This document shows, piece by piece, positions 4,599-54,287 of a stretch of 64,000 nt of DNA. The stretch lies in NCBI RefSeq assembly GCF_009931435.1, contig NZ_CP043414.1. One strand, written 5' to 3'. Each line of letters opens with the position of its first letter. Positions within the stretch are counted from its first letter, which is position 1. A program made the position numbers and the translations under genes. Source of the stretch: Escherichia coli (GTDB lineage: Bacteria > Pseudomonadota > Gammaproteobacteria > Enterobacterales > Enterobacteriaceae). Below the pieces are notes generated by a model. That model saw only the letters and a list, made by a program, of their open reading frames with translations, was not told where the DNA came from and searched no databases.

Positions 4599-4910
4599 AA
4601 GTATGTACACGGGCAGCACGACGCTGCCCGATTGCTTTCTGGTTCAGAATAATTCGTCCTACTCATTCTTCTTCCCCTTTTTTAAATACTTTTTCATCTT
4701 GTTTCGGACTGTCATGTAATTCGCAAAACAAAGATAAATGTGCTAATCCATCCCATGGAATATCGCCAGAATAAAGCAGGTAATTTTTTGATTTTTACGC
4801 CATGATAGAAGTCTGGAAGAAAAAGGCTTTCTGCGATCACAGTCGAGCCGGGCGGGCCAGGCCAAATGCTAAAATAAGCACAATTTACTGACTCATTTTG
4901 AGGTAACGCT

Positions 4911-6662: not shown

Positions 6663-8087
6663 TTACTGCATTAACAGATAGATGGTGCTGTCGCCGCGCT
6701 GAATATTCAGTGCCAGCACAGACGGTTTGCTGTCGAGAACTTTACGCAGTTCAGCGATGTTTTTCACTGCCTGCTGGTTCGCACCAATAATCACATCACC
6801 TTTCTTCAGGCCGATCTGCGCAGCTGGAGTGCCCGTTTTCACGTTGTTCACCACCACGCCCTGATCTTTGCCTTTGTTGCTCATCTCAGCGCCTTCAATG
6901 CCGTTGAAGATGGTGCTGGAATCAACCTGATTCTGGCTGCTCTGCTGCAGTTCCAGGTTCACGTTAACCTGCTTCCCGTCGCGCAGTAAGCCCAGGGTCA
7001 GTTTGCTGCCTACCGGCATAGTGCCCACCTGAGCACGCAGTGCGGCAAAGCTGCTGATTGGCTTACCGTTCAGTGAGGTGATCACATCACCCGCTTTAAT
7101 GCCCGCTTTCGCGGCGGAAGAATTCGGCAGAACCTGGCTTACGAAAGCACCGCGCTGGGCGTCAACTTTCATCGCTTTCGCCAGATCGGAGTTCAGCTCA
7201 GTCCCCATAATACCCAGCTCACCGCGTTTCACCTGGCCGTATTCCACCATCTGCGAGGTCAGGTTTTTCACCATGTTACTCGGGATAGCAAAACCGATAC
7301 CGATGTTGCCGCCGTCCGGTGCGAGGATCGCGGTGTTGATACCGATCAGTTCGCCGTTCAGGTTAACCAGCGCACCACCGGAGTTACCACGGTTGATCGC
7401 AGCATCGGTCTGGATGAAGTTTTCATAGTTTTCGGCATTCAGACCGCTACGCCCCAGCGCAGAGACAATCCCGGAAGTTACCGTCTCACCCAGACCAAAC
7501 GGGTTACCAATTGCTACGGTGTAATCACCCACGCGCAGTGCATCAGAATCCGCCATCTTAATTGCGGTCAGATTTTTCGGGTTCTGGATCTGGATCAGCG
7601 CGATATCAGAGCGCGGATCTTTGCCAACCATCTTCGCGTCGAACTTACGACCATCGCTCAGCTGGACTTTAATCACCGTCGCGTTATCAACAACGTGGTT
7701 GTTGGTGACGACATAGCCTTTATCGGCATCAATGATGACGCCGGAACCCAGCGCCATGAATTTCTGTTGCTGGCCGCCGCCATTACCGCCCTGGCCCCCC
7801 TGGCAGAACGGAGAGCTCTGGAACGGAGAACCTTCCTGGCAGAACGGAGAATCATCACCGAAGAACTGCTGGAAATTACGCGGCATACGCGGCGTATTAA
7901 CGGTTGTGCTACCTTCTACGTTAATGCTGACCACTGAAGGCATCACCTTTTCGAGCATCGGTGCAAGGCTTGGCATCTGCTGGGCTGTCGTTGCTGAAGA
8001 AGTCTCAGCCGCCGTTGCAGAGAGCGGAGATAACGCCAAACCTAAACTCAGAGCCAGTGCACTCAGTGCTAATGTGGTTTTTTTCAT
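6663..8087 (-). CDS. degP: periplasmic serine endoprotease DegP/HtrA
   Basis: 474-aa ORF with signal peptide, trypsin-like catalytic region (GNSGGAL) and two PDZ domains. Confidence 0.95.
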   Translation of the reverse strand: MKKTTLALSALALSLGLALSPLSATAAETSSATTAQQMPSLAPMLEKVMPSVVSINVEGSTTVNTPRMPRNFQQFFGDDSPFCQEGSPFQSSPFCQGGQGGNGGGQQQKFMALGSGVIIDADKGYVVTNNHVVDNATVIKVQLSDGRKFDAKMVGKDPRSDIALIQIQNPKNLTAIKMADSDALRVGDYTVAIGNPFGLGETVTSGIVSALGRSGLNAENYENFIQTDAAINRGNSGGALVNLNGELIGINTAILAPDGGNIGIGFAIPSNMVKNLTSQMVEYGQVKRGELGIMGTELNSDLAKAMKVDAQRGAFVSQVLPNSSAAKAGIKAGDVITSLNGKPISSFAALRAQVGTMPVGSKLTLGLLRDGKQVNVNLELQQSSQNQVDSSTIFNGIEGAEMSNKGKDQGVVVNNVKTGTPAAQIGLKKGDVIIGANQQAVKNIAELRKVLDSKPSVLALNIQRGDSTIYLLMQ

Positions 8088-8132
8088 GTATTTCAGTCTC
8101 GATTAACAGATAACGCAAAATTGCTGTGTTCT

Positions 8133-12016: not shown

Positions 12017-12361
12017 TTAGATGCTGAAGGAAGAACCGCAACCGCAGGTGCTTTTCGCGTTCGGGTTGGTCACGATGAAACGAGAACCTTCCAGACCTTC
12101 GGTATAGTCAACGGAACCGCCGACCAGATATTGCAGGCTCATCGGGTCAACCACCAGGCCAACGCCCTGTTTTTCGATGGTCATATCGCCTTCGTTCACC
12201 TGATCATCAAAGGTGAAACCATACTGGAAGCCGCTGCAACCGCCACCGGTGATATACACGCGTAATTTCAGATTCGGGTTATCTTCGTCAGCGATCAGGC
12301 TTTTAACTTTGTTGGCTGCTGCGTCGGTAAACTCCAGCGGCAGTGCTACGTCATCACTCAT
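12017..12361 (-). CDS. erpA: iron-sulfur cluster insertion protein ErpA (A-type carrier)
   Basis: ORF 12017..12394; start placed at MSDDVALPL (114 aa); C-terminal CGCGSSF motif. Confidence 0.92.
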
Positions 12362-12442
12362 ATTTTGCTCCAAACGACATCGGCAATTGGGCAAATTCTA
12401 ACCCAATAATAATCGCCATTATCTAATACCCTGGTATTTCGT

Positions 12443-13882
<1,440 letters not shown>

Positions 13883-14088
13883 TCATACAAATAAGATGAC
13901 GGCATTTTACTCGCACGTTCCATGAAAATCCTTTGCAAAGCGTAATGTTTCAAATGTACAAAACTTTTATACTCTACGAAATCAGGATTGCACCAGCAGA
14001 AGCAACCTGACGTTTGACGAGTATTTAACTTGTTATGAATAAAATAGAATAGCAGCCATTCACTTTTTCTACGAATCAGGAACCCTCC

Positions 14089-15369
14089 ATGAGTAAGTCT
14101 GAAAATCTATACAGCGCAGCGCGCGAGCTGATCCCTGGCGGTGTGAACTCCCCTGTTCGCGCCTTTACCGGCGTGGGCGGCACTCCACTGTTTATCGAAA
14201 AAGCGGACGGCGCTTATCTGTACGATGTTGATGGCAAAGCCTATATCGATTATGTCGGTTCCTGGGGGCCGATGGTGCTGGGCCATAACCATCCGGCGAT
14301 CCGCAATGCCGTGATTGAAGCCGCCGAACGTGGTCTGAGCTTTGGCGCACCGACCGAAATGGAAGTGAAAATGGCGCAACTGGTGACCGAACTGGTGCCG
14401 ACGATGGATATGGTGCGCATGGTGAACTCCGGCACCGAAGCGACGATGAGCGCCATCCGCCTGGCCCGTGGTTTTACCGGTCGCGACAAAATCATTAAAT
14501 TCGAAGGTTGCTACCACGGTCACGCTGACTGTCTGCTGGTAAAAGCCGGTTCTGGCGCACTCACTTTAGGCCAGCCAAACTCGCCGGGCGTTCCGGCAGA
14601 TTTCGCCAAACATACATTAACCTGTACTTATAACGATCTGGCCTCTGTACGCGCCGCGTTTGAGCAATACCCGCAAGAGATTGCCTGTATTATTGTCGAG
14701 CCAGTAGCAGGCAACATGAACTGTGTTCCGCCGCTGCCAGAGTTCCTACCGGGTCTGCGCGCACTGTGCGACGAATTTGGCGCATTGCTGATCATCGATG
14801 AAGTGATGACCGGTTTCCGCGTGGCGCTGGCTGGCGCGCAGGATTATTACGACGTGGTGCCAGACCTCACCTGCCTGGGCAAAATCATCGGCGGTGGAAT
14901 GCCGGTAGGCGCATTCGGGGGTCGTCGTGATGTGATGGATGCGCTGGCCCCAACCGGTCCGGTCTATCAGGCGGGTACGCTTTCCGGTAACCCGATTGCG
15001 ATGGCAGCCGGTTTCGCCTGTCTGAATGAAGTCGCGCAGCCGGGCGTTCACGAGACGCTGGATGAGCTGACAACACGTCTGGCAGAAGGTCTGCTGGAAG
15101 CGGCAGAAGAAGCGGGAATTCCATTGGTCGTTAACCACGTTGGCGGCATGTTCGGTATTTTCTTTACCGACGCCGAGTCCGTGACGTGCTATCAGGATGT
15201 GATGGCCTGCGACGTCGAGCGCTTTAAGCGTTTCTTCCATATGATGCTGGATGAAGGTGTTTACCTGGCACCGTCAGCGTTTGAAGCGGGCTTTATGTCT
15301 GTGGCGCACAGCATGGAAGATATCAATAACACCATCGATGCTGCACGTCGGGTGTTTGCGAAGTTGTGA
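14089..15369 (+). CDS. hemL: glutamate-1-semialdehyde 2,1-aminomutase
   Basis: 426-aa ORF, class III aminotransferase sequence. Confidence 0.95.
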
Positions 15370-15382
15370 TCCAGCATGGTTT

Positions 15383-15470
15383 GTCGGATGCGGCGTAAAC
15401 GCCTTATCCGACCTACAGATCAGGACCGTTTGTAGGCCCGATAAGACGCCACAGCGTCGCATCGGGCATC
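15383..15470. repeat. REP pair (BIME) in the hemL-fhuB intergenic region
   Basis: GTCGGATGCGGCGTAAACGCCTTATCCGACCTAC and inverted GTAGGCCCGATAAGACGCC...GCATCGGGCATC match the REP consensus. Confidence 0.8.
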
Positions 15471-15526
15471 CGTTGCCGCGTAAAAGCTTTATCCATCCAG
15501 GAGTTAAGGGCCGTTATATGGAAAAA

Positions 15527-17509
15527 TTAACGGCTCTGCTTTCTCAACAAATAGATAAAATACGGCGCGCCGATAAAGGTCGACAGCAGCCCCGCTGGGA
15601 TCTGGAATGGAAACAGCACCATCCGCCCACACCAGTCAGCGAACACCAGCAACAATCCCCCTACCAGCGCCGAAATCACGATGTGCGGCATCGTCCGTCG
15701 AAAGCCCATCATCCGTGCGATATGCGGTGCCATCAGGCCAACAAAACTCAACGGCCCGATGGTCATTGTCGCGGTCGCCGTCAGGCAAGCCGCCAGCAGC
15801 AGTAGCGCAATTCGCGTCGGCGTCAGCGCCATTCCCACGGCTCGTGCGGTATCACCTCCCAGCGGTAAAATGGTCAGCCAGCGGCGGCACAGCGGGGTAA
15901 TCGCCAGCAAAATCACCATCACAATTCCGGTGCGCCAGACCTGCGCCTCGGTCGCGTTGTAGGTCGAACCGGAAATCCAGGTCAGCACTTGCGCCATTCG
16001 CGGGTCACCACTTGCCTGCAACATCATCAAAAGCATGGTGAACGCAGTACTTAAGGCCATCCCCGCCAGTAACATGCGGTGTGGGGAAAATCCACCGCGC
16101 CCGGCAGCGATCATAATGATCAACAGCGTCACCGCCGCGCCGAGACTGCCCGCGGGTAACAGCCAGCCAAAGGCATTACCCGGCACCAGAAACAGCATCA
16201 ACACCACACCAAACGCCGCGCCTGAACTAATCCCCAGCACTTCGGGGCTTGCCATCGGGTTTCCGGTCAGCCGCTGAATAATACAGCCCGCCACTGCCAG
16301 CATGATGCCCGCAAACAGTGCCGCCATAATTCGCGGCCAGCGCCAGGGCATTAAATCATCGAGCAGCGCCCCGCTCGCCCACGTCCAGCCGTGCGCATCA
16401 CGACCAAACGACAGCGCCACCACCACAGCAATTATCAGCAGCACACCGCCAGCAAGGGCAAACGCCAGCACATGTTGGCGTTCAGTCGCGACACGATCGT
16501 TGGCCTTCATATCCGGCGCACTGATGCTGCGTAAACGCGGCAGCAGCCACAGTAACAGCGGCGCACCTATCAACGCCGTCACCGAACCGGTAGAAACTTC
16601 CATCCACACGCGAGTCAGCCAGAGGATGATTTGATCGGAAAGCCAGAGGATCAGCGCACCAATCAGTGACGCCAGCAGCAGTCTTGGCAGCAGACGCCGC
16701 GCCCCCAGCATTTTTGCCAGCAGTGGCGCGAACAACCCGATAAAGCCGATAATCCCCACCGCGTTCACCAACAGAGCACTGATGACTATCGCCAGCGACA
16801 GCGCCGCCAGACGCGCGAGCGATAAGGCCAGCCCGAGATTACGCGCCACGCCATCATCAAGCCCCATCAGGGTTAATGGACGAAGTAGCAGTAACGTCAG
16901 CATCACGCCGCCCAGCAGCTGTGGCCATAAACGCTCAACGCCGCCCCAGTCGGTTTGCGTCAGCGTTCCGGTACTCCACAGGAACATGCTTTGCAGCTGG
17001 TCGTGATGGAAGATAACCAGTAGCTGATTAATTGCCCCACAATAAAGGCTCACCACCAGCCCCGCGAGGATCAGTGTTACCGGCGAAAGCCGTTTCCCCC
17101 ACGCGACGCCAAAGACAATTAAGCCAACAACGCAAGCCCCCGCCAATGCAGCAAACTGGCTCGCCATAGCACCAGGGATCGCCCAGAGCGTGGTGACGGT
17201 AATCCCCAGTTGCGCGCCTGTAGCAACGCCCAACGTCGTCGGCTCCGCCAGCGGGTTACGCAGCACTTGCTGAAATAGCACGCCCACCAGCCCCAGACCC
17301 GCGCCCACCAGCAGCGAAATCGCCAGACGCGGCAGCAAGCTGTAGTGAAAAATCATCTGCTCGATGACATCGATATCCGGCGACCAGGTGGCCTGCACCC
17401 ACTGGCTACGCGGCAGCGCCTGCGAGAAGTTCATCCAGGTTAGCATCGCTGCGGCAATCACCAGCAGCGCCAGCAATAACGCCGGGAAAAGCGCAATACG
17501 TTTACTCAC
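15527..17509 (-). CDS. fhuB: ferric hydroxamate ABC transporter permease
   Basis: 660-aa ORF with internally duplicated FecCD-type permease halves; last gene of fhuACDB. Confidence 0.95.
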   Translation of the reverse strand: MSKRIALFPALLLALLVIAAAMLTWMNFSQALPRSQWVQATWSPDIDVIEQMIFHYSLLPRLAISLLVGAGLGLVGVLFQQVLRNPLAEPTTLGVATGAQLGITVTTLWAIPGAMASQFAALAGACVVGLIVFGVAWGKRLSPVTLILAGLVVSLYCGAINQLLVIFHHDQLQSMFLWSTGTLTQTDWGGVERLWPQLLGGVMLTLLLLRPLTLMGLDDGVARNLGLALSLARLAALSLAIVISALLVNAVGIIGFIGLFAPLLAKMLGARRLLPRLLLASLIGALILWLSDQIILWLTRVWMEVSTGSVTALIGAPLLLWLLPRLRSISAPDMKANDRVATERQHVLAFALAGGVLLIIAVVVALSFGRDAHGWTWASGALLDDLMPWRWPRIMAALFAGIMLAVAGCIIQRLTGNPMASPEVLGISSGAAFGVVLMLFLVPGNAFGWLLPAGSLGAAVTLLIIMIAAGRGGFSPHRMLLAGMALSTAFTMLLMMLQASGDPRMAQVLTWISGSTYNATEAQVWRTGIVMVILLAITPLCRRWLTILPLGGDTARAVGMALTPTRIALLLLAACLTATATMTIGPLSFVGLMAPHIARMMGFRRTMPHIVISALVGGLLLVFADWCGRMVLFPFQIPAGLLSTFIGAPYFIYLLRKQSR

Positions 17510-18399
17510 GCTTTACCTCCAATAGCATTATCCAGAATACGCACAAAATGCATTGCCGAGAGCGTCGCACCATAAAACCAGACTGCGGGGACGCGCTGAA
17601 AGCGTCCGGCACGGACAAACGGCATGGCCTGCCACAGCGGGGTTGCCATTAGTGCGTCCATGTCTCTGCTGTTGTCGTGATCAAAACAGAGCACATCAAC
17701 GTCCTTATACGCTGCCAGACGATCGATACTGACGGCAGTACTGCCCCAGAAGTTGGTTTCTCCTTGCCAGGCATTTGGGATGCCGTACTCATCGAGAATT
17801 TCCTGGAACAGGCTGTTCGGGCCGAAGACCAGCATATGGCGCGGATCGATAAGTGTCGTCAGCAATAACGGGCGCGCACCACGCTTCACAAAGCGGGGTT
17901 TCATGCTGCGGATAAAGTCTTCATAGTGCGCTAAATGCGTTTCCGCTGCGCTTTGCAGGTTAAGTAAATCTGCCATTTCCGTCAGTGACTTACGCGCCAT
18001 CGCCAGCGGCTGTTTGCCGTCGCTGAAGTTAAATCCGCGCCCAGGCGCAATGCGTGCCAGCATTTCTGGTGAAGGGCCATACCCTGCCGACCAGACCATA
18101 AACGACGGTTTCATTTCGGTCAGCAGTTCAAGGTTAGGTTCTGTCCGCAAACCAACGTCAATCACTGAATCCGGCAATGGTGGCTCGCTGACCCACAGGC
18201 GATAGTTGATGGTATCCGCCACGCCGTAAGGTACGATGCCGAGCGCCAGCAGTAATTCCACCGGCAACCACTCCAGCGCCACAATACGATTGGGATCAAT
18301 AGCCGCCGCGCGGGCGGTATTCATCTGCCATAACAACGGAGAAAGCGCCATCGCTGTTAACAGTCGACGGCGCGTAATTAGAGGTAAGCTGCTCATCAA
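17506..18399 (-). CDS. fhuD: ferric hydroxamate periplasmic binding protein
   Basis: 297-aa ORF with signal peptide; its stop overlaps the fhuB start (ATGA); exact start (18399 or 18396) uncertain. Confidence 0.93.
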   Translation of the reverse strand: MMSSLPLITRRRLLTAMALSPLLWQMNTARAAAIDPNRIVALEWLPVELLLALGIVPYGVADTINYRLWVSEPPLPDSVIDVGLRTEPNLELLTEMKPSFMVWSAGYGPSPEMLARIAPGRGFNFSDGKQPLAMARKSLTEMADLLNLQSAAETHLAHYEDFIRSMKPRFVKRGARPLLLTTLIDPRHMLVFGPNSLFQEILDEYGIPNAWQGETNFWGSTAVSIDRLAAYKDVDVLCFDHDNSRDMDALMATPLWQAMPFVRAGRFQRVPAVWFYGATLSAMHFVRILDNAIGGKA

Positions 18400-19193
18400 T
18401 AAACAAAACTCACAGGTGCAGCACCCGCCGGATGCGGCAAAATACCCATCGGGATGCCATAAATCATTTCGAGGGTTTCGCCGCGCATAATTTCCGCAGG
18501 CGTTCCCTGAGCAATCATTTCACCGCCGCGCAGGGCGACCAGATAATCACAGTAACGCGCAGCCATATTGATATCGTGCAGCACGGCAATGACCGTCAGG
18601 CCACGCTCCTGACTTAAACGATGCACCAGCGCCAGCACATCAACCTGGTGGGCGATATCCAGCGCCGAGGTCGGTTCGTCGAGCAACAGACAACGGCTAT
18701 CCTGCGCCACCAGCATGGCGATCCACGCCCGTTGACGTTCGCCGCCAGAGAGGCTATCGACCAGCCGATGCGCCAGCGGTTTTAAGCCAACCAGCGAGAT
18801 AGCCTCTTCGACCTTTTCGCGATCTGCCGCGCCAAAGCGCCCCAGCGCGCCATGCCACGGGTAACGACCAATCGCCACCAGTTCACGCACCGTCATCCCT
18901 TCTGCCGGAGGAAGCTGCTGCGGCAAATAAGCCACTTTGCGAGCAAACGCTTTGCTGCTCCAGCTTTCCAGCGGCTGGGCATCAAGAAGAATCTCCCCTT
19001 CTGACGGTGGCTGATGGCGGCCCAACATTTTTAACAGCGTGGATTTACCAGAGCCGTTGTGACCAATCAGACCGGTCACTTTCCCGGCAGGAAAGGTTAA
19101 CGACAGCGGATGCAAAAGCGTGCGCCCGGGCACACGAAAGGAGATATTACGCAGTGCAAAAGTGGTATCGGAATGATTCGTGTATTCCTGCAT
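18396..19193 (-). CDS. fhuC: ferric hydroxamate ABC transporter ATP-binding protein
   Basis: ORF 18396..19235; start placed at MQEYTNHSD (265 aa); Walker A GHNGSGKST and ABC signature LSGGERQR. Confidence 0.93.
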   Translation of the reverse strand: MQEYTNHSDTTFALRNISFRVPGRTLLHPLSLTFPAGKVTGLIGHNGSGKSTLLKMLGRHQPPSEGEILLDAQPLESWSSKAFARKVAYLPQQLPPAEGMTVRELVAIGRYPWHGALGRFGAADREKVEEAISLVGLKPLAHRLVDSLSGGERQRAWIAMLVAQDSRCLLLDEPTSALDIAHQVDVLALVHRLSQERGLTVIAVLHDINMAARYCDYLVALRGGEMIAQGTPAEIMRGETLEMIYGIPMGILPHPAGAAPVSFVY

Positions 19194-19243
19194 AACAGCC
19201 AACTTGTGAAACGGGCACGGAAATCCGTGCCCCAAAAGAGAAA

Positions 19244-21487
19244 TTAGAAACGGAAGGTTGCGGTTGCAACGACCTGACGTTCTGCGCCCCAGAAGCAGCC
19301 ATAGGTATTAAAGCAGCTGGCGACGTATTCACGATCGAACAGGTTGTTGACATGCAGCGCCACGTTGGAGCCAGCCATGCCGACCCGCGCCAGATCATAA
19401 CGCACTAACGCATCCACGACCGTATAACTTCCCACTTTAAAGGAGTTAGCCGGATCACCATAGCTGGAGCCAGTATAACGACCACCAGTACCCAGCGTCA
19501 GGCCAGAAAGCGGACCATCAAAGAAGGTGTAGTCAGCCCACAGCGAAGCCATATGTTTTGGCACCTGCGCAGGCGTATTGCCTTTATAGGTAGTGTCGGT
19601 GGTGTATTCTGCATCGGTGTAAGTATAAGAACCAACTACGTTAACACTCGCCGACAGCGCCGCTTTCGCTTCGATTTCTACGCCACGCGCGCGGATTTCA
19701 CCACCTTCAACCGAGAAGAAGGAACCCTCAGGGTCCGCCATCAGGTTGTTGGTTTTAGTGAGATTATACACAGCACCAGTAACCACAATTGGGCGATCTT
19801 CCGGTACATATTTCACGCCGACCTCATACTGCTTACCTTTAGACGGCGCAAAAATATTACCATCCTTCCCAACTTGTGAAGAAGGTTCAAACGATTCGCT
19901 ATAGCTGAAGTAAGGTGTTACACCATTATCAAACAGGTAGTTAACACCACCACGCCAGGTAAACTGTTTGTCATCACGTTTATCGGTCGTCCCTTCAACG
20001 CGGTTATGAGACTCTTGATCCGCCCAGTCATAACGACCGCCCAGGGTGACCAGCACTTTATCCCACTGCGCCTGATCCTGAACATAAACACCCGTTTGTT
20101 TCTGCTTATTCAGAATGCGGTAAGGGCCGGAGTTTGCCGGATCTTTCGCATTGAAGTCGAAATCGGTATTCACCGGATTGTACAGATCGAGCAGCGGTAC
20201 GGAGTCGTCGTAACCAAACCAGGCGTTGATGTCATTACGCATACGCATAAAGTCGACACCGGTCAGCAGAGTGTGGTCGATATCGCCAGTGGCAAACTTG
20301 CTCTGCAACTGGGTATCAACGGAGAAGTTTTGCAGCTTCTCATCATCAACGACGTATTTACGTGCCAGGTAGTGACCTTTATCGGCTGGCGCTAAAGCGG
20401 CACACTGTTTGCTGTAAGCATTCGCCGGATCGGAGCAGACGCCGTAACCATAAACGCTGTTTTGCGAGGTTTTGTTTTCAGCAAAGCGCAGGTTCTGACG
20501 CACAGTAAAGGTGTCGTTAAATTCGTGATCGAAGCTGTAGCCCACCATCTTCTCATTACGAGAATAGGTGTTGTTCTTCGCCCCTTCGTTAAAATCTGTC
20601 GGCAGACGCTTACCGTTCGGCAGCGGCTCAACGGTTCCCTCTTTCGGCAGCCAGCCGTAATAACCGGTTTCCGGCTCGTTCTGGAAGTAAGAAAGGAAGG
20701 TGAAATTGGTTTTATCATCCGGACGCCAGGTAAACGCTGGCGCAATGGCATAACGCTGCTCTTCCGCGCCCTTTTGCTGGGCATTGGCAGAGCGCGCCAG
20801 TCCGGTCAGACGATAAGAGTAAACGCCGTCATCATCCAGCGCATCGCTAAAGTCGAAACCGGTCTGGAACAGGCTGTCTGTGCCCGCTTTAAATTGGATT
20901 TCTTTCAGCGGTTCGGTGGTTGGGCGCTTGCTGACCATATTTAACAGGCCGCCAGGGCTACTTTTACCGTAAAGAACAGAAACAGGGCCACGCATAATTT
21001 CAGCGCGTTCCAGCATATACGGGTCAATAACTGCATCGTTATAGAAGTTGCCTTGCAACTTCAGACCATTCAGATAGTTATTCTGGCTTTGGCCTTCTGC
21101 TGCAAAACCACGAATAATCAAATGATCATAAGTGTTTGATGCACCACGCGTACCGACCGAAACGCCTGGCGTATAGCTAAGCGCTTCTTTTACTGACTTA
21201 GGCTGATGCAGCGCCATTTCTTCGGCAGTGACAACAGAAATTGACTGCGGCACTTTTTGAATCGGTGTATCGGTTTTGGTGCCGGTAGCGGACTGTCGCG
21301 CCGCAATAGTTGCAGCTGGCCCCCATGCGCTTTCTTGCGGCGCTGGTGCAGCGGTAACGGTGATAGTGTCTTCTTTCGGTTCAACCGCTGCCTGTGCATA
21401 AACAGACATGCCGCTAACCGCTGTGGCTACTACAACTGCGATTTTACGCAGTGAGTGTTTTGGCTGAGCAGTTTTGGAACGCGCCAT
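19244..21487 (-). CDS. fhuA: TonB-dependent ferrichrome outer-membrane transporter (phage T1/T5/phi80 and colicin M receptor)
   Basis: 747-aa ORF with signal peptide, TonB box and C-terminal aromatic residue. Confidence 0.95.
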   Translation of the reverse strand: MARSKTAQPKHSLRKIAVVVATAVSGMSVYAQAAVEPKEDTITVTAAPAPQESAWGPAATIAARQSATGTKTDTPIQKVPQSISVVTAEEMALHQPKSVKEALSYTPGVSVGTRGASNTYDHLIIRGFAAEGQSQNNYLNGLKLQGNFYNDAVIDPYMLERAEIMRGPVSVLYGKSSPGGLLNMVSKRPTTEPLKEIQFKAGTDSLFQTGFDFSDALDDDGVYSYRLTGLARSANAQQKGAEEQRYAIAPAFTWRPDDKTNFTFLSYFQNEPETGYYGWLPKEGTVEPLPNGKRLPTDFNEGAKNNTYSRNEKMVGYSFDHEFNDTFTVRQNLRFAENKTSQNSVYGYGVCSDPANAYSKQCAALAPADKGHYLARKYVVDDEKLQNFSVDTQLQSKFATGDIDHTLLTGVDFMRMRNDINAWFGYDDSVPLLDLYNPVNTDFDFNAKDPANSGPYRILNKQKQTGVYVQDQAQWDKVLVTLGGRYDWADQESHNRVEGTTDKRDDKQFTWRGGVNYLFDNGVTPYFSYSESFEPSSQVGKDGNIFAPSKGKQYEVGVKYVPEDRPIVVTGAVYNLTKTNNLMADPEGSFFSVEGGEIRARGVEIEAKAALSASVNVVGSYTYTDAEYTTDTTYKGNTPAQVPKHMASLWADYTFFDGPLSGLTLGTGGRYTGSSYGDPANSFKVGSYTVVDALVRYDLARVGMAGSNVALHVNNLFDREYVASCFNTYGCFWGAERQVVATATFRF

Positions 21488-21508
21488 TGGTATATCTCTG
21501 ATGTAAAG

Positions 21509-21558
21509 TGAATGATAACGTAAACGAGAATGATTATTATAAAGATGAGATAATATTC
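21509..21558 (-). promoter_or_regulatory. Fur box(es) in the fhuA promoter
   Basis: GAGAATGATTATTATAAAG and GATGAGATAATATTC resemble the Fur consensus GATAATGATAATCATTATC, 25-70 bp upstream of the fhuA start. Confidence 0.6.
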
Positions 21559-21705
21559 GAAACGCTGGCGGGTTCGCAAGCGGTACGCAATCTGAGCATT
21601 CCTGAGGGGTTAATAAACAATCAGATGAAAAGAAAGGGTTAATACTTTGGGTAGGATGTTATTTTACCGGATGGCGACTCGCCATCCGGTATGTCAGCTT
21701 AGACG

Positions 21706-24240
21706 TTAATTACTACCAAACATATCCTTGATCCAACCTGCTACGCCGTCACTGTCTTTCTGCTCTTGCTGAGCAGGTTGCTGTTGCGGCTGTTGCTGCG
21801 GCTGAGAAGACTGATCAAACGGATTGCCTGACGGTTGCTGCTGAATCTCACTCTGCTGGCACAGCGATTGCGGATCGCTGGTCCAGACCGGCAAGACACG
21901 CATGCCACCGCTGCAAACAAAGTTGCCGTCGTAGTCCACGCCCATATCTGCAATATCTTCTGGTGGAACAAGATTCAGCGGTGTTGGCGTCTGGTTAGCC
22001 AGATAACGCTGATAAATCGACATTGCCCCGCTGGCTCCATACAGTTTGGTCGGCTGGTTGTTATCACGGCCTACCCAGGTGATGGTCACCGTGCTGCCGT
22101 CAATGCCCGCAAACCAGGTATCTACGTTGTTGTTGGTAGTACCCGTTTTCCCTGCCAGATGCAGATTTGGATATTTCGCCCCAAGCTGACGTCCCGTACC
22201 GCGTTGTACTACCTGCTGCATGGTCCATAGTGTCAGATACGCCGCCTGAGCCGGAACAGCGCGTTCCGCCTGCGGGAAGCTCTGATACAGTACCTTGCCA
22301 TCTTCCGCGATTACCGAACGCAGCGCAGAAAGCGGTGCTCGGTTACCACCACTAGCGATGGTCTGGAACGCCTGCGCCACTTCAATTGGCGTTAAGTTCA
22401 ACGCCCCCAGCAGCATTGCCGGAACCGGATGCAGCTGATCTTTCGGTACGCCCAGTTTAATCCAGGTATCCGTAACCGCAGGCAGACCCAGCGCCATCCC
22501 CAGATTCACCGTCGGCACGTTCATCGAACGTGTCAACGCATCCACCAGCATCACTCTGCCACTTTCGCTATAACGACGGTCATCGTTCTGCGGTGACCAG
22601 ACCTGGCCATTCGGCTGACGCAGCGCGATTGGCGCATCGGCAATCCACGTGTTCAGGCGATAGATTTTCGGCTGGCTTAAGGCCGTCAGATAAGTCGCTG
22701 GTTTTGCAAGAGAACCAATCGAACGACGCGCCTGCATCGCACGGTTGTAACCCGCAAACTGCGGCTCAGAACCACCGACCATCGCACGAACTTCACCACT
22801 AAAGCGGTCGACGACCACAATCGCGGTTTCAAGATCGCTCAACTTACGCTGTTTCTTCAGTGCCGGAATGCCTTCCACGGCGGCTTTTTCTGCCGCGTCC
22901 TGGGCCACCGAGTCAAAGGTTGTGAAGATCTTCACGCCGGAGAGATCTTTTACCTTATCGCCCAGTTTTGCCTGCAACTCCTGACGCACCAGCTGCATAA
23001 AGGCTGGCTGTGGAGAGATTACCCCACCGCGCGGCTGAACGCCCAGCGGACGTGCACTCAACATGTCATAGAGCTCTTGATCAATAATCTGCTGTTGTTG
23101 CAGCAGACGCAGTACCAGATTACGTCGCTCCAGCGCCAGTTTCGGGTTACGCCACGGGTTATAGATCGACGCCCCTTTCACCATACCAACCAACAGCGCC
23201 TGCTGGTCGAGACTCAGCTCTTCTACCGGGCGACCAAAGTAGTACAGGCTCGCCAGCGGGAAACCGCGGATTTCGTTGTCGCCGCTCTGACCGAGATACA
23301 CCTCGTTCATATACAGCTCAAGAATGCGGTCTTTGCTGTAACGCGCATCCATAATCAGCGCCATGTAGGCTTCGTTAGCTTTACGCCAGTAAGAACGTTC
23401 GCTGGAGAGGAACAGGTTTTTCACCAACTGTTGCGTCAGCGTACTCGCTCCCTGCACCGTGCGTCCGGCGGTCAGGTTTGCCAGCACCGCTCGTCCGATG
23501 GAGTAGAGACTGATCCCATCATGCTCGTAGAAATGACGGTCTTCAGTCGCCAACAACGTATCCACCAGCAAATCCGGGAACCCACTGCGCGGCACAAACA
23601 GACGCTGCTCGCCGTTTGGTGAGGAGATCATGGTGATCAGGCGCGGATCAAGACGGAAGAAACCGAACTGACGGTTGTTCTCCATATTGACGATGGTCGC
23701 CAGATGATCGCCATCAAAGGTCAGACGTGCACGCACCTGCCCTTCTTTACTGTCCGGGAAATCAAACGGACGGCGGATCATTTCAATGCTGTTGGCCTGC
23801 ACGGTAAATTCGCCAGGACGGGTCATTTTCGACACCTGACGATACTGGGTCGCCTCCAGCAGTTTCACCATCTCGTTTTTGCTGATGGTCATGTCTGGCT
23901 CAAGGTTGACCATTCGGCCATAAACAGCCGCAGGCAATTGCCAGACTTTGCCATCAATACGGCTACGAATTTTTTGATCGAGATAAACGCCGTAAATGGC
24001 GATCAGCACGGCAAAAACGATAGCAAGTTTTAGCAGTAGCCATAGCCAGCCGCGTTTGCCACGAGGCTTACGCCCTTTGCCTTTGCCCTTACCTTTGCGC
24101 GGCATCGGTTCTTCATCCTCATAGTCATCATAATCGTCGTAATCATCGTCATCTTCATAACGACGACGGCTTACCTTTTGTTTGACCGGACGCGTCGGTT
24201 TCCCTTTGCGTCCAATTGGCTCGCGGTCATTCCCGGCCAT
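21706..24240 (-). CDS. mrcB: penicillin-binding protein 1B (glycosyltransferase/transpeptidase)
   Basis: ORF 21706..24255; start placed at MAGNDREP (844 aa); acidic then Lys/Gly-rich N-terminus, TM helix, TG and TP domains. Confidence 0.95.
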
Positions 24241-29741: not shown

Positions 29742-31139
29742 ATTTTTACCCGAGTCGCTAATTTTTGCCGCAAGGTGCTAAGCCGCGAGGAAAGCGAGGC
29801 TGAACAGGCAGTCGCCCGTCCACAGGTGACGGTGATCCCGCGTGAGCAGCATGCTATTTCCCGCAAAGATATCAGTGAAAATGCCCTGAAGGTAATGTAC
29901 AGGCTCAATAAAGCGGGATACGAAGCCTGGCTGGTTGGCGGCGGCGTGCGCGACCTGTTACTTGGCAAAAAGCCGAAAGATTTTGACGTGACTACTAACG
30001 CCACGCCAGAGCAAGTGCGCAAACTGTTCCGTAACTGCCGCCTGGTGGGTCGCCGTTTCCGTCTGGCTCATGTGATGTTTGGCCCGGAGATTATCGAAGT
30101 TGCGACCTTCCGGGGACATCACGAAGGTAACGTCAGCGACCGTACGACCTCCCAACGCGGGCAAAACGGCATGTTGCTGCGCGACAACATTTTCGGTTCC
30201 ATCGAAGAAGACGCCCAGCGCCGCGATTTCACTATTAATAGTCTGTATTACAGCGTGGCAGATTTTACCGTCCGTGATTACGTTGGCGGCATGAAGGATC
30301 TGAAGGACGGCGTTATCCGTCTGATTGGTAACCCGGAAACGCGCTACCGTGAAGATCCGGTACGTATGCTGCGCGCGGTTCGTTTTGCCGCCAAATTGGG
30401 CATGCGCATCAGCCCGGAAACCGCAGAACCGATCCCACGCCTGGCTACCCTGCTGAACGATATTCCTCCTGCACGCCTGTTTGAAGAATCGCTTAAACTG
30501 CTACAAGCGGGCTACGGTTACGAAACCTATAAACTGTTGTGTGAATACCATCTGTTCCAGCCGCTGTTCCCGACCATTACCCGCTACTTTACGGAAAATG
30601 GTGACAGTCCAATGGAGCGGATCATTGAGCAGGTGCTGAAGAATACTGACACGCGTATTCATAACGATATGCGCGTCAACCCGGCGTTCCTGTTTGCCGC
30701 CATGTTCTGGTATCCCCTGCTGGAAACAGCACAGAAAATCGCGCAAGAGAGCGGCCTGACTTATCACGACGCTTTCGCGCTGGCAATGAACGATGTGTTA
30801 GACGAAGCCTGCCGTTCACTGGCGATCCCGAAACGGCTAACCACTTTAACGCGTGATATCTGGCAGTTACAGTTGCGCATGTCCCGCCGTCAGGGTAAAC
30901 GCGCATGGAAATTACTCGAACATCCGAAGTTCCGTGCCGCTTATGACCTGCTGGCACTGCGTGCTGAAGTAGAACGCAACGCCGAGCTACAACGTCTGGC
31001 GAAATGGTGGGGTGAGTTCCAGGTTTCCGCGCCGCCGGACCAAAAAGGGATGCTTAACGAACTGGATGAAGAACCGTCACCGCGTCGTCGTACTCGTCGC
31101 CCGCGCAGACGTGCGCCGCGCCGTGAGGGCACCGCATGA
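29742..31139 (+). CDS. pcnB: poly(A) polymerase I
   Basis: ORF track opens at the TTG at 29721; no ATG near the 5' end; start placed at the ATT codon at 29742 (IFTRVANF), as reported for E. coli pcnB; nucleotidyltransferase GGGVRD motif. Confidence 0.85.
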
Positions 31140-31612
31140 CAGTGGCGTATATTGCTATCGGCAGCAATCTGGCCTCTCCGCTGGAGCAGGTCAATGCTGC
31201 CCTGAAGGCAATAGATGACATTCCTGAAAGCCGCATTCTTGCCGTTTCTTCGTTTTACCGCACCCCACCACTGGGGCCGCAAGATCAACCCGATTACTTA
31301 AACGCAGCCGTGGCGCTGGAAACCTCTCTTACAGCTGAAGAACTCCTCAACCACACACAGCGTATTGAGTTGCAGCAAGGTCGCGTCCGCAAAGCTGAAC
31401 GCTGGGGACCGCGCACGCTCGATCTTGATATCATGTTGTTTGGTAATCAGGTCATAAACACTGAGCGCCTGACCGTTCCGCACTATGATATGAAGAATCG
31501 TGGATTTATGTTGTGGCCGCTGTTTGAGATCGCGCCGGAACTGGTGTTTCCTGATGGTGAAACGCTGCAAGCAAGACTCACTACTTTCCCTCCCTGCCCA
31601 CAGCACTGGTAA
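31136..31612 (+). CDS. folK: 2-amino-4-hydroxy-6-hydroxymethyldihydropteridine pyrophosphokinase
   Basis: 158-aa ORF recognised as HPPK; start overlaps the pcnB stop (ATGA). Confidence 0.93.
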
Positions 31613-50215: not shown

Positions 50216-50359
50216 TTGCTGACAAAGTGCGCTTTGTTCATGCCGGATGCGGCGAAAACGCCTTATCCGGCCTACTAAAACTCGCAAATTCAATAAATTG
50301 CAGAGTTCACGTAGGCCTGATAAGCGTAGCGCATCAGGCAGTTTTGCGTTTGTCAGCAG
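50216..50359. repeat. REP pair (BIME) in the gcd-cueO intergenic region
   Basis: GCCGGATGCGGCGAAAACGCCTTATCCGGCCTAC and inverted GTAGGCCTGATAAGCGTAGCGCATCAGGC; flanked by inverted 10-mers TGCTGACAAA / TTTGTCAGCA. Confidence 0.8.
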
Positions 50360-54250: not shown

Positions 54251-54287
54251 CGGCTCTGGCGGAGCTCGCAGGCTCCGCCAGATTTAT

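Follow-up and report, generated by a model that had tools for sequence, protein, structure and literature searches.

Translational coupling is best documented for gene pairs whose stop and start codons lie at spacings of -4, -1 and -8, and these three spacings are enriched genome-wide (PMC12548453). Reinitiation pairs with the motifs NTGA at -4 and TRATG at -1, together with a class at -8, have been described by Huber et al. 2019 (PMC6728339) and Huber et al. 2023 (PMC10666635) and reviewed by Brown and Wade 2025 (PMC12548453); some of them carry a Shine-Dalgarno (SD) sequence inside the upstream gene. When premature stop codons were placed in native E. coli -4 pairs, four of five proved to be coupled (PMC6728339). 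Of the two standard models of coupling, one is unfolding of RNA (PMC12548453, PMC6728339), and data on depletion of the ribosome recycling factor, discussed in PMC10666635, have been read as counting against reinitiation as the main mechanism. At a functional level, subunits of complexes are encoded by 30.4% of the E. coli pairs spaced -8 to +10, versus 6.8% of distant pairs (PMC10666635). In E. coli K-12, fhuACDB has been described as an operon, and a cryo-EM paper on FhuCDB remarks on its overlapping nucleotides (PMC8660799). For pcnB-folK of the same strain, Mohanty and Kushner 2006 described a dicistronic mRNA and drew the ATGA overlap (PMC1636475, Fig. 3).

Here we analysed a stretch of 64,000 nucleotides of Escherichia chromosome (hereafter the window) in which neighbouring genes on the same strand share these motifs, spacings and arrangement. 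The PGAP annotation of E. coli R32_14_1F (98.8% identical over 7 kb) supplied the CDS ends. In the window every ORF so transferred is intact, and each overlap motif coincides with these CDS ends. A sequence-only reading of the window had listed five overlapping junctions. Reading of the sequence confirmed a stop-start overlap at every one of them, with the motifs at fhuD/fhuB, pcnB/folK, yadG/yadH and mtnN/btuF lying exactly where that reading had put them, in agreement with the transferred annotation; the length at fhuC/fhuD had to be corrected. A sixth overlap, of 8 nt between yadW and erpA, had been overlooked. All six junctions belong to the motif class NTGA / TRATG / NTGNNTRR between same-strand neighbours (Table 1).

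Table 1. Coordinates in the window of the overlaps, the fhuCDB coding sequences and the associated signals
Feature	Position	Strand	Remarks
fhuD stop / fhuB start, GTGA	17509..17506 (GTG 17509..17507, TGA 17508..17506)	-	spacing -4
fhuC stop / fhuD start, TGATG	18394..18398 (TGA 18398..18396, ATG 18396..18394)	-	spacing -1
pcnB stop / folK start, ATGA	31136..31139	+	spacing -4
yadG stop / yadH start, ATGA	45336..45333	-	spacing -4
mtnN / btuF, ATGGCTAA	10509..10516	+	spacing -8
yadW / erpA, ATGAGTGA	12354..12361	-	spacing -8
fhuB CDS, 660 aa, GTG start	15527..17509	-	NCBIfam FhuB equivalog 1-660/660, 1413 bits, cut-off 1107
fhuD CDS, 296 aa, ATG start	17506..18396	-	NCBIfam FhuD equivalog 552 bits, cut-off 252
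fhuC CDS, 265 aa, ATG 19193	18396..19193	-	NCBIfam FhuC equivalog 1-265/265, 578 bits, cut-off 433
Hairpin GGGCACGG-ATTT-CCGTGCCC	19213..19232	-	in 50-nt fhuA-fhuC spacer, terminator-like, conserved
GGAGG, SD of fhuB	17516..17520	-	within fhuD Gly-Gly codons, 6 nt before GTG
GAGGG, SD-like motif of folK	31125..31129	+	within pcnB, 6 nt before ATG
GGGAG, SD of yadH	45348..45344	-	duplex -8.2 kcal/mol

The gene identities given by the sequence-only reading proved sound. The fhu genes stand in the order A-C-D-B on one strand, FhuC, FhuD and FhuB match their equivalog profiles above the curated cut-offs over their full length, and the BtuF equivalog profile is matched over 1-265/266. The end coordinate of that reading, 19235, marks the first TTG in the maximal ORF, and fhuC itself starts at ATG 19193. 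The downstream starts are real, in that the overlapped codon is the start codon of the gene, with support for fhuD, fhuB, folK, btuF and yadH: the btuF, yadH and fhuB products align to their equivalog profiles from position 1 or 2, and the PDB chains of HPPK open at residue 2 of the folK ORF of the window. The yadH gene opens with ATGATG, and use of the second in-frame ATG (45333..45331) would give a spacing of -1 instead of -4, an ambiguity like that of fhuD that had been passed over; yadH overlaps yadG whichever ATG is used.

We compared these numbers with chance. Overlaps are found in 6 of the 35 co-directional pairs of the window, every one at -1, -4 or -8 (three at -4, all RTGA; one at -1, TGATG; two at -8). 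By crude arithmetic, with 12 spacings sterically possible from -1 to -20, the probability that all six land on these three is (3/12)^6 = 2.4e-4. The bare motif is cheap, an NTG being present at -4 in 12 of 53 annotated stops and a start codon at -1 in 7 of 53; the signal beyond chance is that real, conserved genes start at the motifs. Pairs spaced -8 to +6 number 7 of 35 (20%), versus 24% in E. coli K-12 (PMC10666635); tightly spaced pairs are therefore about as frequent in the window as usual, and it is typical, not exceptional, in this respect.

To define the fhuC/fhuD junction, the start of fhuD was compared in 80 loci of Enterobacteriaceae, from Escherichia to Klebsiella and Raoultella, with FhuD identities of 72-98%. 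The sequence across the junction is TTGATGA, in which the ATG directly abuts the fhuC stop, and the sequence-only reading had left the start ambiguous between 18399 (TTG) and 18396 (ATG), with an overlap of 4 nt (18396-18399). Every locus (80/80) has the ATG at -1, whereas a start codon at -4 is found in only 31/80, the TTG being confined to loci in which fhuC ends in TAT followed by a TGA stop. This comparison settles the start on ATG 18396 and thus gives an overlap of 1 nt (TGATG) and not 4: the 4-nt overlap holds only for a TTG start, and with the ATG the shared base is 18396 alone. The motif T[GA]ATG is itself kept in 80/80 loci (stop TGA in 55, TAA in 25), beside fhuD codons 2-8 that are just 30-50% conserved. 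The fhuD start has no SD, the best duplex (-2.2 kcal/mol) lying 11 nt away, and alignment of 42 fhuC/fhuD junctions gave no conserved RNA structure (consensus -1.0 kcal/mol, no covarying pair).

At the fhuD/fhuB junction, [AG]TGA is kept throughout (80/80 loci), as is an RTG start for fhuB. The SD of fhuB forms a duplex of -10.6 kcal/mol with the anti-SD, and its GGAGG is kept in 69/80 loci. The first codon of the fhuD Gly-Gly pair is GGA in 69 loci and GGG in 11, never GGC or GGT, and for the last Ala of fhuD all 77/77 cases use GCG or GCA and none uses GCC or GCT. Both fhu junctions, the two compared across species, are thus invariant in the 80 loci, their synonymous sites being constrained (GCR Ala, GGR Gly), and their conservation is judged from the alignments to exceed neutral expectation.

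SD content differs among the six junctions. The duplex energies are -6.2 kcal/mol for folK and -5.6 kcal/mol for erpA, with yadH as given in Table 1, whereas btuF, like fhuD, has no SD at a usable distance. On average the overlapped genes do not stand apart from the other genes of the window (-5.9 vs -5.4 kcal/mol). A scan of Rfam at gathering thresholds identified no known RNA element at the junctions; its two hits, the HtrA thermometer and ES036, lie elsewhere.

Taken together, these data are best explained by short stop-start overlaps of an ordinary kind between co-transcribed neighbours of an Escherichia chromosome, at which the downstream gene would depend on translation of the upstream one, a reading to which we give a probability of roughly 85%. 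A single transcript is plausible for fhuACDB and pcnB-folK, which the K-12 literature cited above describes as an operon and a dicistronic mRNA; the sequence scanned for promoters (15300-21800) bears no sign of internal ones. NTGA junctions arise easily, the start codon supplying three of their four bases, and the overlaps may be retained as the ribosome that ends the upstream gene already sits on the downstream start. Such a ribosome could reinitiate there or, failing that, hold the site open, and so link the amounts of the two proteins. The sequence-only reading had taken overlap to imply coupling. This stands to the extent that -4, -1 and -8 are the best documented classes; it is not automatic, since bioB/bioF overlaps and yet initiates de novo. 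Dependence on upstream translation is nevertheless a likely prediction for these pairs. As fhuD and btuF have no SD, reinitiation is favoured for them, while fhuB, yadH and folK, with SDs, may also be initiated independently. For folK, whose upstream gene pcnB begins with a weak ATT in the transferred CDS, strict coupling would tie an essential gene to a poorly translated one, which argues for some independent folK initiation. The enrichment of complex subunits among closely spaced pairs fits fhuCDB and yadGH. Our literature search retrieved no study showing upstream-translation dependence for these pairs and no paper on fhuD/fhuB translational coupling, and none of the six genes is present in the TRAINSPOTTER and TetRP supplements (start-site profiling, N-terminomics).

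The two fhuCDB junctions probably work differently. From fhuC to fhuD, with no SD, no conserved structure and only the invariant U(G/A)AUG, termination-reinitiation is the most likely mechanism, and FhuD synthesis would most likely depend on ribosomes terminating fhuC. From fhuD to fhuB, the RUGA overlap and a GGAGG apparently kept by selection on synonymous sites point to SD-assisted reinitiation, possibly accompanied by de novo initiation. Upstream of fhuC, the spacer hairpin (MFE -20.1 kcal/mol, z = -4.2) varies in 74 sequences by an A-U to G-C change of one stem pair in 18 and a G-C to A-U change of the closing pair in 5, and it is followed by a T-rich tail in most genera; it marks off fhuA from the closely packed fhuCDB genes. 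A bolder and rather doubtful proposal is that the hairpin throttles read-through, giving more outer-membrane receptor than ABC transporter, and that fhuC/fhuD is an obligate SD-independent reinitiation site, with FhuD made in strict proportion to fhuC termination. If true, fhuC/fhuD would provide a clean, naturally occurring test of 70S reinitiation independent of an SD. Upstream of fhuA, no Fur box matching the 19-nt consensus with at most 3 mismatches was found; a candidate Fur-like site with 14/19 matches (CTTTATAATAATCATTCTC, 21544..21526, minus strand) was identified by eye.

Among the other explanations, the one that survives best, though we regard it as improbable, is that the overlaps are passive by-products of compaction and mutational ease, free 30S subunits initiating de novo at their own sites with no coupling. 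It is consistent with SDs of fhuB, yadH, folK and erpA within the normal range for genes of the window, with bioBF, where initiation is de novo despite the overlap, and with the commonness of NTGA motifs by themselves (the 12/53 stops counted above). However, it does not account for fhuD and btuF, which have no usable SD and yet encode functional binding proteins, nor for the invariance of U(G/A)AUG and RUGA in 80/80 loci while adjacent codons drift; moreover, coupling was seen in 4/5 of the native E. coli pairs examined.

Somewhat less probable still is coupling by RNA unfolding, in which local structure hides the downstream start until upstream ribosomes melt it. This model is one of the field's two standard ones, and in the MFE fold of fhuC/fhuD from the window the fhuD AUG does lie within a small hairpin. 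However, single-sequence folding gave all six junctions stabilities no better than those of shuffled controls (z from -1.66 to +1.05), and the absence of a consensus structure at fhuC/fhuD likewise led us to reject structure-mediated coupling.

That internal promoters drive the downstream genes, making co-transcription and coupling immaterial, is very unlikely. A complex operon does lie nearby, the passage of PMC4161252 on this region placing the pcnB-folK unit within ligT-sfsA-dksA-yadB-pcnB-folK; however, the same passage makes no mention of a folK-only unit, and pcnB-folK is described as a dicistronic mRNA (PMC1636475). Between 15300 and 21800, 7 promoter-like matches were found versus 4.4 +/- 2.3 in shuffled sequence (a weak, consensus-only scan), and none of those on the minus strand, which is the coding strand, lies inside fhuC or fhuD; internal promoters were rejected on these grounds. 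Finally, a fhuD start at TTG 18399, with a 4-nt fhuC/fhuD overlap, is hardly credible: this TTG (18399..18397) is the first start codon of the fhuD ORF and would yield a canonical NTGA motif, but either a TAC codon at the end of fhuC or a TAA stop removes it, the ATG at spacing -1 is the start in both PGAP and the K-12 table, and the TTG was rejected on its 31/80 occurrence versus 80/80 for the ATG.

Under the preferred reading of ordinary overlaps with predicted coupling, the practical consequences are modest. Fixing the fhuD start at ATG 18396 is a matter of annotation hygiene. Deletions, insertions or CRISPRi in fhuC, fhuD, pcnB, yadG, mtnN or yadW are likely to hit translation of the downstream gene as well as its transcription, and caution is advisable in engineering. 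For studies of coupling, fhuC/fhuD, which has no SD, and fhuD/fhuB, where the SD appears selected, offer a natural contrast within one operon.

The comparison with known systems gives the same picture. All six pairs are found, with the same distances, in the published K-12 table (PMC10666635, supplement). Measured against the NTGA, TRATG and -8 reinitiation pairs of the literature, those of the window show no structural difference, and the ABC-transporter pairs fit the complex-subunit enrichment of that class; dependence on upstream translation is what we infer here. The bioB/bioF pair of E. coli shares the 4-nt operon overlap; in the reporter, its bioF initiates de novo despite a weak SD and is uncoupled (PMC6728339). 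In the pcnB-folK pair of K-12 (Mohanty and Kushner 2006, PMC1636475), both the ATGA overlap and the ATT with which pcnB starts are as in the window; the last ~15 FolK residues of the window differ from those of K-12 and of the PDB sequence, which has no bearing on the junction. Compared with fhuACDB of K-12, the gene order is unchanged and the two junctions again lie at -1 and -4. The window is a divergent Escherichia allele, which shares 98.8% identity with the best complete E. coli genome and whose FhuD is closest to that of Escherichia sp. E1V33; its junctions are unchanged. These six overlap pairs are therefore already known and catalogued, ordinary and of low interest.

The closest complete genome, NZ_CP074749.1 (E. 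coli R32_14_1F), was used for gene order and annotation transfer: 53 of its PGAP-annotated CDSs were placed on the window by blastn, and all 53 are intact ORFs, in the order map-glnD-dapD...mtnN-btuF-yadS...hemL/fhuB-fhuD-fhuC-fhuA...pcnB-folK...yadH-yadG...aceF. A 7-kb stretch around the overlapping genes matched 5,425 of 5,426 complete E. coli genomes (best match, 98.8%), and the nearest relatives of FhuD were found in Escherichia sp. E1V33 (98%), followed by E. whittamii and E. coli (97%). On the basis of these genome matches, intact CDSs and FhuD relatives, the window is an Escherichia chromosome segment, and the gene names of the sequence-only reading are correct. Two genes of the reference are missing from the window: yaeI, located between dapD and yaeH in the reference, has left only a 312-nt spacer (4599-4910), and a gene for a tetratricopeptide-repeat protein, which the reference carries between speD and yacL (19213-20304 of the reference locus), is absent at 54251-54287. 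The only Rfam matches at the gathering threshold were the HtrA 5' UTR thermometer and the ES036 sRNA.

The sequence confirmed, with small corrections, that adjacent genes overlap at their stop and start codons. Overlaps of 4-8 nt had been claimed at five junctions; four are exactly as stated, but fhuC and fhuD share 1 nt when fhuD starts at ATG. The end coordinate 19235 proved to be the first TTG of the maximal ORF, fhuC starting at ATG 19193. The yadW/erpA overlap had been missed. The yadH gene opens with a tandem ATGATG (45331-45336, -), two candidate starts, the first ATG lying at spacing -4 and the second at -1 relative to the yadG stop. The yadW (21 codons, 12354-12419, overlapping erpA by 8 nt) and yadX (15 codons, 13876-13923, ending 11 nt before clcA) genes are both 100% identical to the reference and look like upstream small ORFs placed to influence erpA and clcA translation.

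Features of the gene junctions and Rfam matches in the window (spacing, downstream start relative to upstream stop; SD, Shine-Dalgarno sequence; energy, anti-SD duplex of the downstream gene; K-12 distances from PMC10666635)
Feature	Position	Strand	Spacing	Energy (kcal/mol)	K-12 distance	Remark
fhuC stop TGA	18398..18396	-
TTG in fhuD frame	18399..18397	-				would give a 4-nt overlap
ATG in fhuD frame	18396..18394	-	-1	-2.2	-1 (fhuC-fhuD)	overlap is single base 18396 (TGATG); SD 11 nt away, none usable
fhuB SD GGAGG	17520..17516	-		-10.6		embedded in fhuD; 6 nt from GTG
fhuD/fhuB overlap GTGA	17509..17506	-	-4	-10.6	-4
pcnB/folK overlap ATGA	31136-31139	+	-4	-6.2	-4
yadG/yadH overlap ATGA	45336..45333	-	-4	-8.2	-4
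mtnN/btuF overlap ATGGCTAA	10509-10516	+	-8	-2.8	-8 (mtn-btuF)	SD 13 nt away, none usable
yadW/erpA overlap ATGAGTGA	12354-12361	-	-8	-5.6	-8
Hairpin GGGCACGG-ATTT-CCGTGCCC	19232..19213	-				MFE -20.1 kcal/mol, z = -4.2; 11 nt after fhuA stop
HtrA 5' UTR thermometer	8082-8127	-				upstream of degP; Rfam, 77 bits
ES036 (CssrF) sRNA	50277-50318	+				downstream of gcd; Rfam, 41.3 bits

The minus-strand sequence of the fhuC/fhuD junction reads ...TAT TGA TGA GC..., and the fhuD start had been left ambiguous between positions 18399 and 18396. The junction was compared among 80 Enterobacteriaceae loci encoding FhuD relatives (72-98% identity; one genome per species), from Escherichia, Citrobacter, Salmonella, Enterobacter, Klebsiella, Raoultella, Kosakonia, Kluyvera and other genera, in each of which fhuC, fhuD and fhuB were located by tblastn. 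An ATG was found at spacing -1 in all 80 loci (TGATG in 55, TAATG in 25), whereas a start codon at -4 was present in only 31, exactly those in which the last fhuC codon TAT is followed by TGA; it is gone when this codon is TAC or the stop is TAA. Moreover, conservation is only 30-50% in fhuD codons 2-8, against an invariant junction. Because of this pattern, we assign the fhuD start to ATG 18396 and reject TTG 18399, which by this comparison is a side effect of a Tyr codon standing directly before a TGA stop. The same 80 loci all carry [AG]TGA at the fhuD/fhuB junction (GTGA in 35, ATGA in 45). The last fhuD codon, Ala in 77 loci, is GCG or GCA without exception, and neither GCC nor GCT occurs; Gly four codons upstream is encoded by GGA (69 loci) or GGG (11) but never by GGC or GGT, and GGAGG precedes the fhuB start in 69 of the 80 loci. 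This constraint on synonymous sites indicates selection on both the fhuB start codon and the SD embedded in fhuD.

An NTG is present at -4 of 12 of the 53 annotated stops of the window and a start codon at -1 of 7; the bare overlap motif is thus uninformative, the non-random part being that real genes start there. Six of the 35 co-directional neighbour pairs overlap, all at -1, -4 or -8. By our own crude arithmetic, the probability that six overlaps fall on these 3 of the 12 sterically possible spacings (-1 to -20) is about (3/12)^6 = 2.4e-4. In bacteria and archaea, the commonest spacing is -4, followed by -1 and -8 (PMC12548453; PMC10666635). The window is typical, since 7 of its 35 pairs (20%) lie between -8 and +6, compared to 707 of 2,987 unidirectional pairs (24%) in E. 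coli K-12 (PMC10666635). All six pairs are listed in the supplementary K-12 table of that study with identical distances; the literature already contains both the phenomenon and these particular examples.

Independent initiation from internal promoters had been named as the observation that would speak against coupling. A consensus scan of 15300-21800 yielded 7 promoter-like sites, not above the shuffle level (4.4 +/- 2.3), and neither fhuC nor fhuD contains one on its coding strand. In K-12, pcnB-folK is a dicistronic, Rho-terminated mRNA, drawn with its ATGA overlap (PMC1636475), and it forms a transcription unit within ligT-sfsA-dksA-yadB-pcnB-folK (PMC4161252). The scan and the K-12 literature point, weakly, away from internal promoters.

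RNA folding did not exceed dinucleotide shuffles at any of the six junction regions (z -1.66 to +1.05), and 42 diverse fhuC/fhuD junctions, once aligned, gave essentially no consensus structure (-1.0 kcal/mol, without covarying pairs). For fhuD and btuF, the simplest reading would be that the ribosome that has just terminated on the upstream gene reinitiates; fhuB, yadH, folK and erpA would use SD-assisted reinitiation, possibly supplemented by de novo initiation. By annotation transfer, pcnB starts at ATT (29742-29744, +), with GAGGTG 4 nt upstream; this non-canonical start is a known peculiarity of the gene. Under strict coupling, folK would therefore depend on a gene that is itself weakly translated, and for this reason the SD of folK may be important. 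In PDB chains of the E. coli folK enzyme, the first residue corresponds to residue 2 of the window ORF, which agrees with a start at the ATG of ATGA. FolK of the window differs from E. coli K-12 and the PDB entries in its last ~15 residues (31565-31612, +), at equal length (158 aa); this variant is probably shared by the closest reference genome, as its folK CDS is 98.95% identical. From their sequences (MSSLPLITRRRLLTAM... for FhuD), FhuD and BtuF are predicted to be secreted with cleaved signal peptides, so that the start codon could not be read from their mature N-termini.

The fhuA and fhuC genes do not overlap but are separated by a 50-nt spacer (19194-19243). Its stable hairpin is kept in 74 distinct Enterobacteriaceae sequences, in which base changes in the stem compensate each other (A-U to G-C in 18; closing pair G-C to A-U in 5) and is followed in most genera by a T-rich tail; no Rfam family matched it. 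The motif AAGTTGG is conserved 6-14 nt ahead of the fhuC ATG, at the distance expected for an SD. The hairpin is probably an intra-operon terminator or attenuator, or an mRNA 3'-end stabiliser, that would set expression of the receptor apart from that of the closely packed transporter genes. Upstream of fhuA, a Fur-box-like sequence, CTTTATAATAATCATTCTC (21526-21544, -), agrees by eye with 14 of 19 positions of the 19-nt consensus and overlaps a promoter-like match; a Fur consensus search at up to 3 mismatches did not detect it.

Our literature search returned no paper on translational coupling in fhuCDB. Premature stop codons combined with mRNA normalisation showed that four of five native E. 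coli -4 pairs are coupled, bioB/bioF being the exception; SD removal in the four decreased reinitiation by at least 60% and abolished it in one (PMC6728339). These experiments fit the reinitiation reading but also limit it, and the literature is unsettled on reinitiation versus RNA unfolding and on 30S versus 70S particles (PMC12548453; PMC10666635). Translational coupling of these pairs, which had been taken as implied by the overlaps, is a reasonable but unproven interpretation. The pcnB/folK and mtnN/btuF pairs are functionally unrelated. The fhuC/D/B and yadG/H genes encode ABC-transporter subunits, and the overlap at fhuC/D/B agrees with a remark by the authors of the FhuCDB cryo-EM study (PMC8660799); both groups fit the known 4.5-fold enrichment of complex subunits in E. 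coli gene pairs with close spacing (PMC10666635).
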